From: a virus
Lineage: Duplodnaviria; Heunggongvirae; Uroviricota; Caudoviricetes
IMG/VR virus record: IMGVR_UViG_2728369393_000013
Reading direction: 5' to 3' (one strand)
Length of the DNA stretch: 36,573 nt
Position numbers and translations under genes: made by a program. The notes under the pieces were generated by a model, which was given only the letters and a program-made list of their open reading frames with translations, did not search any database and had not been told where the DNA came from. Position 1 is the stretch's first letter. Every line of letters begins with the position of its first letter. Below are positions 614 through 31,919 of the stretch, in pieces.

Positions 614-1204
614 ATGTCTCGAATTTTTGCTTACTGTCGGATATCAACGCTGGATCAGACCACCGAAAATCAACGCCGGGAAATCGAAAGTGCAGGTTTT
701 AAAATCAAACCTCAGCAAATAATCGAAGAACACATTAGCGGCTCAGCAGCAACCAGTGAGCGTCCTGGTTTTAACCGGTTGCTTGCTCGCCTGAAATGTG
801 GTGATCAATTGATTGTGACAAAACTGGATCGCCTTGGTTGTAATGCAATGGATATCAGGAAAACAGTGGAACAACTGACCGAAACAGGTATCAGAGTGCA
901 TTGCTTAGCATTGGGGGGCATTGACCTGACCAGTCCAACAGGAAAAATGATGATGCAAGTAATTTCAGCAGTCGCTGAATTTGAACGAGACCTTTTACTT
1001 GAACGCACTCATTCCGGGATAGTAAGAGCCCGGGGCGCAGGGAAACGTTTTGGTCGACCACCTGTGTTAAATGAAGAACAGAAACAGGTGGTATTCGAAC
1101 GAATTAAGTCAGGTGTAAGTATAAGTGCCATTGCCCGGGAATTCAAAACCTCGCGGCAAACCATTTTAAGAGCCAAAGCAAAACTTCAGACACCTGACAT
1201 ATAA
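614..1204 (+). CDS. pin: Pin/Gin/Hin-family serine DNA invertase (196 aa)
   Basis: N-terminal [15 protein letters not shown] with catalytic-serine context typical of serine recombinases, C-terminal HTH; length matches PinQ/PinE/PinR; sits next to tail fibre assembly gene. Confidence 0.9.
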
Positions 1205-1759
1205 AAAATAATCTCGGTGTGAGATGCTTTACGTCTTCCAAGCCCCCTTCCTTGCCGTAAATGGAAAGATACATCTAATTATAGAATTTATATGTTTTAC
1301 CCTACGGCAGTGCTGGCCATTCAATATCCTGTGCAGTTGACGTATCAACACGGTTCAGCAATACCCGATACTTTTTCCATGCTTCCAGCAACGAGATTTC
1401 TTCCTCCGTTGCAATTTCCAGATCTGCAGCATCCTGAAGCGGCGCAATATGCTCACTGGCTACCTGCATCAGGTTGTTTTTTGTTTCTTCCGCCTCCCGG
1501 ATCCGGAACAGTTTTTCTGCTTCTGCATCTTTCACCCAGGCTGTGCCGTTCCACTTCTGAAACTCCCCTTCCGGCGATAACCAGGTAACATTTTCCGGTA
1601 ACGGACCGAGTTCAGAAATAAATAACGCGTCCCCTGACGCTACGTCATAAACCGTTTTACCCGATGGTCTTCAACGAGATGCCACGATGCCTCATTGAGG
1701 TAGCCTGAGTTTAACGGACACTCCTTCCTGAAATAGAATGGCATCAGAAGGAGCTAATA

Positions 1760-19390: not shown

Positions 19391-19590
19391 TTCACTTTCT
19401 TAAATCTAACGACAGACGGCTAACATTTAAGTATTGTGAAATATTATCAAATGCAATCATCATTGATTTACAAAAGATACATTTTGCCCCGAAAGGATTC
19501 CTGTCAGAAACATCAAAAGATGATGTTCTATACTGAGAACCATGGCAACACGGGCATCTAAAGTGAATATGGTTTGTAATATTTTCTACC

Positions 19591-19803
19591 TCAAAGTGCC
19601 ACAACATGAACAGCCGCGGGGCCTTTAGGTCCGTTCTCAATACCAAATTCGACTTCCTGATTCTCAGTTAACGTTTTGAAATCGTTGCTCTGAATAGCTG
19701 AGAAATGGACAAACACATCTTTGCTACCATCTTTCGGCGTGATGAAACCAAAACCTTTTTCAGGGTTAAACCATTTCACTAAACCAGTCATTTTGTTAGA
19801 CAT
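19591..19803 (-). CDS. cspI: Cold shock protein, CspA family (70 aa)
   Basis: [38 protein letters not shown]... canonical CSD with RNP motifs. Confidence 0.9.
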
Positions 19804-20166
19804 CATTATTACCTTTTGAAGAAGTTAGCCCTTGGGCAGAATGGTCCGAAAAAAAATATCAGAGAGAAAAACCAACAAGGAAATCTCAAGAGGTACAAAT
19901 AATAAAATTATAACAATGACTGCTTCAGATAATTTTGTAACAAACCAGAACACCATTAACGCATGATTAACCAACCATAGCAAGGATTACTTTTGTAAAG
20001 AAAAACACACGAATGAAACAATAGCTTTATTTATTAATAAAACGTGTCATTCTGTCTAATGACCTTTTATCTTACCCTTAAGATTTCAAGGATTTTGACT
20101 CATGGAAGAGTCCTTTTTATTTAAATTTCACATTCAGCGCTAAAAATAATCCGATTTAATATTAAT

Positions 20167-21194
<1,028 letters not shown>

Positions 21195-21307
21195 GGATAT
21201 TTATCAGGATTTATCGGCTTCAAATCCCCGGATATGTTAAATCTTACCTCACCAGTGATGGGCACTGGCGGGAGGAGGATGTCAATCTGATAAACACAGA
21301 GGCGACT

Positions 21308-21568
21308 ATGGATTACACAAATCTACCAAAACAAACTTTTGCTGATTTAATCGCACTCAGGCAAGCAGTCGTAGCTCTAATCAACTTGTTGCCGGAGAAG
21401 GAAAAGGAATTAGTTAAAGCGCTTCTTAACAGAACTGCCGCCGATTTTTCATCATATCCACTGACAGATGACCTTGCGGACCTTCCTGAATTAATTGCAG
21501 CGTCCGCCAATAAGCTTACTGAAGAGATTTACCCTCCTCAAAAATCTTCACAAAATTCCTGCGAGTAA
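21308..21568 (+). CDS. Hypothetical small acidic protein (86 aa) on opposite strand inside lysis cassette
   Basis: ATG preceded by GAGG; followed 20 bp downstream by strong hairpin plus T8 terminator. Confidence 0.4.
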   Translation: MDYTNLPKQTFADLIALRQAVVALINLLPEKEKELVKALLNRTAADFSSYPLTDDLADLPELIAASANKLTEEIYPPQKSSQNSCE

Positions 21569-22088
21569 CTTCAATGCAATAATCGTAAAACGCCGCAAAC
21601 TGCTCATCGCGGCGTTTTTTTTCATCTTCAGAAGGAATCAGCACCGACAATTTTTTATTCAGATCAGCGACGCTGCCCTCCAGTTTTTCAATGGGCGATT
21701 CAATATCATCTTTTTCTGACCGCAATGCCGTCGGTGGCGTCTTCAGAGAACCAGTAATTCTTCCCGGTAGCTTTCCTTTGTAGGTTATCCACACATTCTG
21801 CGCCTCTAAAATTATGGGGCGCTTTTCCGGCGACTGCTCATCCCCTTCACATAACCCGGCAGCAACATCCAGGAAGACCTGTCTGATGCTCCTTCTGGCT
21901 GCTGCCTCATAAAACTCCAGCGCGGCACCTTCAACACGGTCCAGCGAGATGTCCAAGTCAAAAATTTCACCGTCAAAGTGTTTTTTGTCCCGTAAGGCTA
22001 CAGTTACCGCCACTTTATTCTCAAAATTGCGAACTCCTTTCACAACCAGTTCATAGTCTTGAGTCATTGGATTACTCTCTTCTCGCAA
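21516..22088 (-). CDS. Hypothetical protein between holin and endolysin (190 aa as listed; YdfR-position gene)
   Basis: Long ORF in lysis operon orientation overlapping holin stop; start uncertain (M1 or M8); 3' coding overlaps terminator hairpin. Confidence 0.45.
21590..21626 (+). terminator. Rho-independent terminator (hairpin ACGCCGC...GCGGCGT followed by T8), potentially bidirectional
   Basis: AAAACGCCGCAAACTGCTCATCGCGGCGTTTTTTTT seen directly. Confidence 0.65.
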
Positions 22089-22287
22089 CCTTACGCCTGT
22101 CTTCTTTAATCTTGAAATAAAGGTTTGTCAGATATGTCAGCAGGCCAAAAACCAGACTACCCAGCACACCGATTGCAGCCCACTGTGACGGAGTTACTTT
22201 ATCGAGTAACTGCAATGCCCAGAAACCAGCATTACCAGCCGATGTGCCATAGGCGATACCTGTTGTTAACTTATCCATTGATTTCAT
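22072..22287 (-). CDS. essQ: Lambdoid class II holin (71 aa)
   Basis: [66 protein letters not shown]: two TM segments, charged C-terminus. Confidence 0.8.
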
Positions 22288-22735: not shown

Positions 22736-22760
22736 AAAAAACCCGCCTGAGCGGGTTTAA
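22736..22760 (-). terminator. Rho-independent terminator for cspB (minus strand; weaker on plus)
   Basis: AAAAACCCGCCTGAGCGGGTTT: CCCGC/GCGGG stem with T-run on minus strand. Confidence 0.65.
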
Positions 22761-23039
22761 TATTGTGGTGCTTTTTGTGGGAGTCATCCACTTACGCACT
22801 TTGTTTTGCTATGCTAGCAGTTAGCTTCTGCTGTAAAACTATTCATGCAGCAAACCTGCACTTCACCACAATGGTTAGCATACTTTTCCTGATTAAGTTA
22901 TTGCCAAATATGCTGGCCATTGTTTCATGTATTGGATCTCCTTACTATTTATTAAAGAGATCCAATATTCACCACTCTGTCTGTATCTCCACTCAGGCAT
23001 CAGCCTTCTTCGTTATCGTATACAGACAAACTATTAATT

Positions 23040-23255
23040 TTAATCAGTAATTATGACATTTGCTGCTGCAGGACCTTTAGCACCACTCTCTACAGAGAAG
23101 GTAACCTTTTGACCTTCAAATAAGGTTCGAAAATTATCATTCTGAATCGCAGAAAAATGCACAAACACATCTTTACTACCATCAACAGGAGAAATAAAGC
23201 CAAAACCTTTATCAGCGTTAAACCATTTTACTAAACCAGTCATTTTATTTGACAT
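23040..23255 (-). CDS. cspB: Cold shock protein CspB-like (71 aa)
   Basis: [53 protein letters not shown]... Confidence 0.9.
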
Positions 23256-23555
23256 TCTACATTCCTTAACTTGAGCCTTTCGGCATAAATGGCTTGTATA
23301 ACAGAAACGACTTCGTACTTAATTGGAGAGACTCAAAGAAGGAATAAGTGAATAACACCTGAAATGAGAACTGCTTTAGTAAACTACTTCGTATATCGTC
23401 TGTTCTTCAAACCGACGCAATCATTAACGCATAGTTGAACATATGAAGCAATGTTTATTTTAGACATCCAGCCATCTTCAACCCCATCAAAAAACTATAG
23501 CTTTCTTCAGGAACGTGTGTATAGTGCGCCAAGTTATCAGTATTAAGGAATTTTT

Positions 23556-31090: not shown

Positions 31091-31919
31091 GACGATGCCC
31101 TCCGCTGATATTCAGGAAACGGTGAATATGAAGATTAGCCTTATCCGCCAGACGAATACGTTCAGCCTGCAAGTTAAGAAGGGTTTCTACCAGAACCTGA
31201 TGCGCCTGCGGATCCGAAAGAGTTACCTTGCGCAGAGCACGTAGTGCAGTTGTTACATAGCTGAGTTTATGTAAGTCTTCATCATTCAGACGAGTGAGGG
31301 CTGGGACAGTAGCCATGATGGCAGCCTCCGTATGCAATGGATAACTTCCACCACCGGAAACGCCAATTTCGCTGGTGGTGAACTGAGCAGGGTTGGCGTA
31401 ACCGGCGCATACGGAAACCGGCGCACCTTTCGGTGCCCCCACCCAGCCCACCATAATTTGGGTATAGCTGAGTTGTAGCAACAAAAAAGACGCTAACGCG
31501 CCAATTGTCGCCGTATGCAATTCCAGGACGCCAATCCCGGCACCCGCTTTATAAGGTGCCTGAACAGTGTAACGTCCCGGAATGGCAGAATCAATGTGCT
31601 GGTGGTCCTTCACACTCAACAAAATCACGCCTGAATTTCCACAAAGGGCTAAAGCACTCATGCGGGTAGTCTTTGCGAAGATAGATAACGCGCTGTGTTT
31701 CTGGCTCCCAACGAATAACATGAACATAAAGTCCTCTTCCGTCACGAAACCAGCGGTTAAGTTCCTGCACAACTCGCCCCCCACAGTCAGGTAAAGTTCT
31801 CTGTGGTTACTTACAGCCAGGAGATTTGGTAATCTGCATTCATGCCGTAACAACAGGTGTTCAGCGACGCTGACCACCAGCTGTTGCGACAAACGGTTAT
31901 TTGCCGTTAAACTGTTCAT
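31083..31919 (-). CDS. Hypothetical protein (278 aa) in replication module
   Basis: Long ORF in operon orientation; no motif recognised by eye (no Walker A). Confidence 0.45.
   Translation of the reverse strand: MNSLTANNRLSQQLVVSVAEHLLLRHECRLPNLLAVSNHRELYLTVGGELCRNLTAGFVTEEDFMFMLFVGSQKHSALSIFAKTTRMSALALCGNSGVILLSVKDHQHIDSAIPGRYTVQAPYKAGAGIGVLELHTATIGALASFLLLQLSYTQIMVGWVGAPKGAPVSVCAGYANPAQFTTSEIGVSGGGSYPLHTEAAIMATVPALTRLNDEDLHKLSYVTTALRALRKVTLSDPQAHQVLVETLLNLQAERIRLADKANLHIHRFLNISGGHRHA

Follow-up and report, generated by a model that had tools for sequence, protein, structure and literature searches.

A probable conserved convergent gene pair between the holin and lysozyme genes of a Qin-like Escherichia coli prophage

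Two convergent reading frames in a lysis cassette

The window examined here is the whole 36,573-nt sequence of the viral record IMGVR_UViG_2728369393_000013, whose minus strand carries a lambdoid lysis cassette of the Qin/phage-21 type at 20167-22287. Judged from its Pfam matches and from the RefSeq annotation of a 100%-identical locus, the source is a Qin-like E. coli prophage. Reading leftward, the cassette consists of the holin gene, a ydfR gene encoding a DUF1327 protein, a lysozyme gene, and an Rz gene. A gap of 321 nt separates the ydfR stop codon from the start of the lysozyme gene, and an open reading frame (ORF) of 86 amino acids (aa) on the plus strand runs from within this gap into the 3' end of ydfR, such that the two frames converge and overlap by 53 nt. 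An earlier note on this DNA had described the minus-strand ORF, the plus-strand ORF with its Shine-Dalgarno sequence, and a hairpin followed by eight T residues (T8) inside the 3' region of the minus-strand ORF, and all of these elements are present. The recurrence of this arrangement in distantly related phages indicates that both ORFs are probably real genes and together constitute a conserved convergent pair. The features of the locus are listed below, with the basis of each assignment in parentheses (AF2, AlphaFold2).

21308-21568, plus strand: 86-aa ORF, most likely an antisense gene, phrog_2572 (PHROG match, E 4.4e-53; remote homologues; AF2)
21298-21302, plus strand: Shine-Dalgarno sequence AGAGG, 5 nt before the ATG of the 86-aa ORF (sequence reading)
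21516-22067, minus strand: long-form ydfR gene, 183 aa (full-length phrog_2091 match, E 8.1e-112, aa 1-183 of 183)
21732-22067, minus strand: DUF1327 domain of YdfR, aa 1-112 (Pfam PF07041, 143.4 bits, E 2.6e-42)
21516-21731, minus strand: C-terminal tail module of YdfR, aa 113-183, predicted helical (homology, PHROG matches, AF2)
21516-21568, both strands: 53-nt 3'-3' overlap of the convergent genes (sequence reading)
21587-21622, plus strand: hairpin and T8, candidate intrinsic terminator or 3' stabiliser of the plus-strand gene (fold energy, position in three lineages)
21197-21238, plus strand: conserved block upstream of the plus-strand gene, candidate weak promoter or operator (invariant in three lineages)
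22072-22287, minus strand: class II (phage 21 S-type) holin gene, essQ-like, 71 aa, first gene of the cassette (Pfam PF04971 Phage_holin_2_1, E 7.3e-34)
20661-21194, minus strand: lysozyme gene, rrrQ-like, 177 aa (Pfam PF00959, E 2.6e-24; RefSeq name rrrQ)
20167-20664, minus strand: Rz-like spanin gene rzpQ, DUF2514 (Pfam PF10721, E 1.9e-38)

The minus-strand ORF spans 21516-22088 and would encode 190 aa if read from the TTG at 22088. The credible start is the ATG at 22067, which lies 4 nt after the holin stop codon and yields a protein of 183 aa. As the earlier note had anticipated, this protein belongs to the DUF1327/YdfR family: its first 112 residues align to positions 1-92 of the 93 in PF07041, for which the cut-off is 25 bits.

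Recurrence of the pair in other lineages

The 86-aa product matches phrog_2572 over its full length (aa 1-86 to profile positions 1-86), and no credible match to it was found in Pfam. A first, k-mer-indexed protein search returned close relatives in the same genomic context only; remote relatives were found solely by the decisive step, an exhaustive hidden Markov model (HMM) profile search of 1.84 billion representative proteins. This search recovered P0146 (93 aa, E 9e-14, 49% identity) and P0147 (89 aa, E 2e-11, 41% identity), both of which are full-length relatives and match phrog_2572 from end to end. Profile matches of 975 and 1521 aa, which are repetitive, and one of 95 aa look compositional and were not used.

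Inspection of the surroundings of the homologues revealed the same convergent arrangement in two lineages besides that of the window. In the E. coli loci L113, L164, L170, and L172, ydfR encodes 174 or 243 aa, and between it and the lysozyme gene lies a 93-aa gene that converges on ydfR with an overlap of 59 nt. In L110 and L168, the homologue is found between Rz and the small terminase gene and converges on a 73-aa gene consisting of the tail module, once more with an overlap of 59 nt. In all three lineages, the partner gene ends in the same ~70-aa tail module and the overlap measures 53-59 nt; the module is fused to DUF1327 in the window and in one other lineage, and is a separate 73-aa gene downstream of Rz in the third. 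A Shine-Dalgarno sequence is present throughout, taking the form of TAAGGA 7-8 nt before an ATG or GTG start in the other two lineages. We also considered whether the last 17 codons of the plus-strand ORF are simply an accidental run into ydfR, but this was ruled out by the remote homologues, whose C-terminal tails are homologous to that of the ORF and whose genes show the same overlap.

The substitution pattern between lineages points in the same direction. Differences at codon positions 1, 2, and 3 of the plus frame number 29, 20, and 37 between the window and L170, and 32, 18, and 36 between L013 and L172. An excess at position 3 over position 1, with position 2 no higher than position 1, favors coding in the plus frame, whereas coding in the shadow frame predicts the opposite. 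Among the ~100 loci examined, the body of the plus-strand ORF contained no frameshift and all of its indels were multiples of 3, whereas five of the six indels in the 113-nt spacer upstream of it were not. The AF2 model of the 86-aa protein (predicted local distance difference test, pLDDT, 74) contains helices at residues 8-26, 30-48, and 56-74, with the last 12 residues disordered; the product is predicted to be small and acidic, with three helices and a disordered tail. A Foldseek search of this model against BFVD gave no match with E < 1, and neither the 86-aa nor the 183-aa protein matched the defence and toxin-antitoxin families of PADLOC at E <= 0.1. In the records of PhiR12_1 and PhiR5_1 the protein is labelled 'DUF1823', but the match behind that label (E 0.02-0.13) is noise. 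Taking these comparisons together, the 86-aa ORF is most likely a real gene. Of the two options put forward in the earlier note, the one that places an antisense gene within the late operon is thus supported by full-length relatives of 41-49% identity that occur in the same convergent, overlapping arrangement.

The other option was that the 190-aa gene is shorter than listed, and this applies to its 5' end only, where 183 aa are read from the ATG rather than 190 from the TTG. A search of 5.8 billion proteins identified full-length 183-aa homologues at 78-95% identity, together with variants of 176, 171, 211, and 296 aa that differ by in-frame indels (21, 36, and 84 nt) and have an unchanged C-terminal end. 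The full-length protein is also annotated in the phages PhiR63_1 and 2H10. Moreover, the tail module is homologous to the 73-aa protein of L110/L168 (BLASTP E 1e-5, 43% identity over 35 aa), the gene of which has its own ATG, as well as to segments within the 222- and 296-aa forms; the 222-aa protein of L022 carries the module without DUF1327. The module has PHROG matches of its own (phrog_36381 and phrog_15975). In the AF2 model of YdfR, residues 5-73 form three beta-strands and one helix, and the tail forms helices at 123-143 and 147-182 with low to moderate pLDDT. Because the full-length homologues keep the frame through in-frame indels and the tail is homologous to a stand-alone protein, shortening at the 3' end is not supported, and the protein is conserved to its C-terminus. 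The earlier note had named, as the outcome that would speak against it, a minus-strand protein conserved to its C-terminus next to a plus-strand ORF that is not conserved. The first half of this is what we found, while the plus-strand ORF proved to be conserved too.

RefSeq treats the long gene differently. In CFSAN004176, CFT073, A22, and others, the Prokaryotic Genome Annotation Pipeline (PGAP) annotates only aa 1-112 (21732-22067), as a pseudogene labelled 'YdfR family protein, incomplete, missing C-terminus'. The label is systematic among the long forms (183 aa, 296 aa, and others), being found in L001, L002, L003, L019, L020, L021, L023, L024, and L025. It would be justified if only aa 1-112 were functional and the last 71 codons were a read-through into an inserted antisense cassette bringing its own terminator. 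The Pfam domain does end at aa 112, and short forms of 114-116 aa, which are very common, stop just beyond this residue. Nevertheless, the tail is conserved in the 183-, 176-, 211-, and 296-aa forms with in-frame indels only, it has its own PHROG families, and it is found both fused to unrelated N-termini (the 222-aa protein of L022) and free, as the 73-aa gene with its own start codon. The hairpin, furthermore, lies in sequence that is common to L022 and L009, which lack the plus-strand ORF at that place, and was therefore not brought by the cassette. The PGAP label stems from a model built on short forms, and the 103-aa YdfR of K-12 itself appears to be a deletion derivative. For these reasons, we consider a pseudogene highly improbable.

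The K-12 protein deserves a separate comment. Comparison of K-12 ydfR (L004 4055-4366) with L170 2385-2951 placed the junction between GATATTTAT and GATGAGGACG. The 103-aa form is most simply explained as a derivative with a ~570-bp deletion that removed both the C-terminal tail and the convergent small gene, and the last codons of K-12 ydfR would therefore derive from the conserved block beside rrrQ. Like the K-12 protein, that of the window has a clear DUF1327 domain (aa 1-112) and is encoded between essQ and rrrQ; unlike it, the window protein has a 71-aa helical tail.

The in-gene hairpin, the upstream block, and possible functions

The arms of the hairpin are located at 21587-21596 (AAAACGCCGC) and 21609-21618 (GCGGCGTTTT), separated by a 12-nt loop, and T8 occupies 21615-21622. 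The structure starts 19 nt after the plus-strand stop codon and lies 69-104 nt upstream of the minus-gene stop codon, where it covers codons 149-161 of that gene (KKRR...AAF). Its stem of 6 GC and 4 AU pairs is a codon palindrome, in which AAA (K) pairs with TTT (F) and CGC (R) with GCG (A). The fold energy is -15.6 kcal/mol on the plus strand (z -3.05, with 0 of 200 shuffles as good) and -18.7 kcal/mol on the minus strand (z -2.98). The position of the hairpin, 19-23 nt after the plus-strand stop codon, is kept in all three lineages. In L113/L170, the stem (AACGCCACC/GGTGGCGTT) has one extra C-G pair, and one G-C pair has become A-U by two changes, both of which are non-synonymous in the minus-strand protein (RR to RHH and AA to VA). 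An A>G change in PhiR12_1 yields a 12-bp stem with an 8-nt loop. The 296-aa forms, which do not have the plus-strand gene, have lost the hairpin through a 15-nt deletion, and a synonymous GCG>GCT change weakens it in L025. Such a pattern is consistent with selection on a structure that is linked to the plus-strand gene, although the formal count is not significant, and a terminator of that gene is the best inference as to the role of the hairpin. Rfam has no family at the hairpin or elsewhere in the cassette.

The earlier note had regarded the hairpin as a terminator shared by the two genes, which is not how it is placed: rather than standing between the stop codons, it is inside the minus-strand gene. 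Like bidirectional intrinsic terminators, it consists of a GC stem between an A-run and a T-run and folds on both strands. Unlike them, it is located within a coding sequence, has a 12-nt loop, and is followed by a U-run of 8 on one strand vs 4 on the other, the minus-strand tail after the stem being only UUUUAC. Since the late transcript must pass this point to reach the lysozyme and Rz genes, the hairpin cannot be a shared terminator; it can act as a 3' element for the plus-strand gene only, and as a terminator it is atypical.

Upstream of the plus-strand gene, the conserved block is composed of ATATTTATCAGG (21197-21208), TTTATC (21210-21215), a 17-nt spacer, and TATGTT (21233-21238). It is invariant in the three lineages, with either TATGTT or TATTGT, including L110/L168, in which there is no adjacent lysozyme gene. 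On the minus strand, the same block is the leader of the lysozyme gene, beside its start codon. A direct repeat, ATTTATC-AGG-ATTTATC, was also observed within 21197-21238 and is likewise unchanged across the three diverged lineages. From its sequence, the block is a candidate weak promoter or operator.

A number of observations weigh against a real plus-strand gene with its own transcript and terminator. A consensus scan for sigma-70 promoters found no site of >= 9/12 upstream of the plus-strand gene in any lineage, and TTTATC-N17-TATGTT matches the consensus at only 7/12 positions. A search of the literature found no expression data for the gene. Within the window lineage, the 30 distinct substitutions at 21308-21515 comprise 12 synonymous and 18 non-synonymous changes, against an expected synonymous fraction of 0.24-0.30, and purifying selection on the ORF is weak (pN/pS 0.39-0.93). 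The antisense shadow frame, which has its third codon positions in common with the plus frame, gives an identical signal; this comparison is underpowered and cannot tell the two frames apart. The ORF has been lost in some lineages through ATG>ACG in the widespread lineage with a 176-aa YdfR, through a nonsense change of Q19 to a stop codon in L100, and through IS3 insertions. The family is narrow as well, with a single positive among 185,579 species-representative genomes, an E. coli. With regard to the hairpin, the consensus terminator scan made no call because the 12-nt loop is longer than 8 nt, a Rho-independent terminator having a loop of 3-8 nt, and 'strong', the term used for it in the earlier note, was an overstatement. 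The 3' U-tract is poor in L113/L170 (TTGTCGCTCATTT), and a good U-run is found in the window lineage only. Covariation is not significant, as two pairs changed on both sides were also obtained in 109 of 500 shuffles, and most of the stem may be inherited codons for the conserved KRR...AA motif.

Most of these points speak for a rival explanation, in which the 86-aa ORF is not a gene at all but a chance or shadow frame in a non-coding 321-nt gap (a scar of recombination or a leader of R, the lysozyme gene), with the hairpin as a by-product of the YdfR codons for KKRR...AAF. The lack of a Pfam family and the omission of the ORF by some annotators (strain A22, PhiR63_1, and 2H10) agree with this explanation. 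It does not account for relatives of 41-49% identity that keep the length, the start codon with its Shine-Dalgarno sequence, and the position of the stop codon in three lineages, nor for the between-lineage codon pattern, the triplet indels in the ORF body, or the compact helical AF2 model. In L110/L168, no lysozyme gene follows the segment, and it cannot be an R leader there. Consequently, we regard the non-gene explanation as unlikely, though not negligible.

IS3-family insertions are located at 2959-4172 of L017, in the YdfR tail, and at 236-1449 of L021, inside the 86-aa ORF at about position 21369 of the window.

Overall, we favor, with moderate confidence, a real convergent pair in which the plus-strand gene is moron-like cargo that is terminated inside its neighbor. 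The gene would be transcribed on its own, in the manner of lambda bor and probably in the lysogen, from a weak conserved promoter beside the lysozyme start codon. Its transcription would end at the hairpin and U8 within the YdfR codons for KKRR...AAF, and antisense transcription would therefore not continue into ydfR and the holin gene. Opposing late transcription would meet the same hairpin with U4 only and read through it, with Q antitermination helping, and would thereby reach the lysozyme and Rz genes.

Two more elaborate proposals assign a function to the overlap. In the first, the 86-aa gene and the ~70-aa tail module form an unrecognized two-gene unit that acts as a strand-switch device, the 3' overlap and the in-gene hairpin both being functional. 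In the lysogen, the plus-strand gene would be expressed, giving RNA complementary to the lysozyme leader and the tail of ydfR, while late transcription would overrun and silence the plus-strand gene. Depending on the direction of transcription, the hairpin would then either terminate the transcript or act as a site of RNA processing or stability, with a possible tie to the RNase E-binding DUF1327 domain that is fused to the tail module in this phage. We view such a device as a doubtful, speculative prospect.

In the second proposal, the locus is a regulatory or addiction-type module and the overlap itself is the mechanism. The plus-strand transcript of the lysogen, antisense to the lysozyme leader and the tail of ydfR, would damp leaky late expression, late transcription would silence the plus-strand gene by collision or an RNA duplex, and the hairpin would be a site of processing or stability instead of a simple terminator. 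In its favor, three lineages and two genomic positions retain both the 53-59-nt overlap and the placement of the hairpin despite protein identities of 41-49%, and the hairpin folds on both strands. The partner domain is also suggestive: two-hybrid and co-purification assays showed binding of residues 1-72 of K-12 YdfR, the DUF1327 core, to the N-terminal catalytic half of RNase E, and K-12 YdfR pulls down or co-purifies with RNA, such that the domain may bind RNA (PMC13232886). This RNase E binding is the sole experimental functional lead for the family. Our literature search otherwise found DUF1327 in a passing mention only, and found neither a link between ydfR and the holin nor the PhiR phages. 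Conversely, neither protein has a toxin-like feature or a PADLOC match, and the overlap could persist merely because the cassette moves as one block, as its mosaic pattern indicates. We therefore judge a module of this kind to be very unlikely.

A slot for opposite-strand cargo

In support of the favored explanation, the site between ydfR and the lysozyme gene is a slot whose contents vary among related phages. The slot is empty in K-12 Qin, where ydfR abuts or overlaps the rrrQ start codon. In the 296-aa YdfR type, it is occupied by an in-frame C-terminal domain and there is no plus-strand ORF. L022, from E. coli ST130 and Stx2a phages, has a second convergent pair in the slot, with a 106-aa plus-strand ORF (717-1037, phrog_1853) that overlaps by 21 nt its minus-strand partner (1017-1685), the 222-aa protein composed of the tail module and the C-terminal domain. 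When compared, the 86-aa and 106-aa ORFs were not homologous. In L024, from E. coli 90-3040 and of the O157/Stx1a type, a 210-aa gene unannotated in RefSeq (778-1410, plus strand) is located between ydfR and the lysozyme gene, a slot also present in Stx1a-converting phages. Its product has no Pfam, PHROG, or PADLOC match, but its full-length homologues, at 53-65% identity, are encoded beside sodC in Salmonella (L107) and, in L109, within a block of lambda-like tail genes, and judging from these the gene is clearly real. From 21273 to ~21535, the window has no similarity to the slot contents of other phages by blastn or tblastx, which also rules out that this segment is a remnant of the C-terminal domain of the 296-aa form.

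The divergence of the locus is similarly uneven. In comparison with L013, pS is 0.06-0.14 for the cassette formed by the pair and 0.46-0.59 for the flanking holin and lysozyme genes; with L013, L006, and L098 together (20661-22287), the holin and lysozyme genes reach 0.31-0.73, while the central part, consisting of the spacer, the 86-aa ORF, and the YdfR tail, remains at 0-0.16. The cassette being far less diverged than its flanks, it has spread recently by recombination, moving as one unit among lysis cassettes that are otherwise diverged. The pair behaves as a mobile cassette, and its place in the slot is taken in other phages by other cargo genes on the opposite strand or is left empty.

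YdfR is encoded between the class II holin and lysozyme genes in the same gene order as in K-12 Qin, and the holin gene is named essQ in RefSeq at the 100%-identical locus. The lysozyme has a hydrophobic N-terminus typical of SAR endolysins, and it presumably belongs to that class. The segment 21150-22300 is 100% identical to E. coli CFSAN004176 and 98.9% identical to CFT073, S88, and APEC O1. The central 537 bp are 100% identical in the viable phage PhiR63_1 (from ECOR13) and 99.6% identical in phage 2H10; PhiR12_1 and PhiR5_1 are further viable phages with the module. Neighboring genes include the Qin-type prophage markers cspI, cspB, cspF, ynfU, and ydfT. The cspA-type thermoregulator RNA leaders (Rfam RF01766) of cspB and cspI, at 22977-23416 and 19545-19961 on the minus strand, flank the lysis cassette; as in Qin, the late lysis genes thus have cold-shock genes on either side. 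The late strand also carries a canonical terminator upstream of the holin gene (22739-22758, minus strand), AAACCCGC-TCAG-GCGGGTTT followed by a T-run, which is presumably the cspB terminator, a late tR'-type terminator, or both. Other Rfam matches in the prophage, all on the minus strand, are IS009 (221 bits, 1336-1534), a C4 antisense RNA (81 bits, 31371-31458), and the Hfq-binding RNA isrK (61 bits, 31483-31559).

Morons are autonomous extra genes located between genes that are adjacent in related phages; their base composition is unlike that of the surrounding genes, they have a promoter and a terminator of their own, and they are expressed from the repressed prophage. Lambda bor is a moron on the opposite strand beside the lysis genes, following the concept of Hendrix and Juhala. 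Like these lambdoid morons, the 86-aa gene lies on the strand opposite to the late operon, between genes that adjoin in K-12 Qin, and has a hairpin with a U-run after its stop codon. The GC content of the cassette is 0.414, lower than that of rrrQ (0.517) and the DUF1327 part of ydfR (0.488); the ydfR tail is equally low (0.417). The L110/L168 homologue is situated exactly at the bor position, between the Rz and terminase genes. Unlike lambdoid morons, the 86-aa gene is not free-standing: it shares 53-59 nt at its 3' end with a partner gene, whose codons also make up the putative terminator, and the two travel together in three lineages. It also differs from bor in having no good recognizable promoter, and its protein is unrelated to Bor, with neither a lipoprotein signal nor a Pfam family. 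A second parallel is the lambda oop RNA, which is antisense to the 3' end of cII. Here too the convergent units overlap at their 3' ends, with potential for RNA duplex formation and transcriptional interference, but both partners of the window pair encode proteins.

Both families are already present in PHROGs with 'unknown function', and what is new here is the recognition of the conserved convergent pair and of the annotation errors that result from missing it. RefSeq mislabels long YdfR forms as pseudogenes, annotates the antisense ORF unevenly, and omits the 210-aa slot gene of O157-type prophages. The 86-aa gene is present in prophages of uropathogenic (CFT073 and S88), avian-pathogenic (APEC O1), and Shiga-toxin-type E. 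coli as well as in viable phages, and opposite-strand cargo in phage late regions often proves to consist of lysogenic-conversion or defence genes. If the overlap and the in-gene hairpin are not functional, the 86-aa gene would be an ordinary moron. If they are, the pair would provide a compact example of a terminator within protein-coding sequence and of antisense coupling between lysogenic and lytic transcription.

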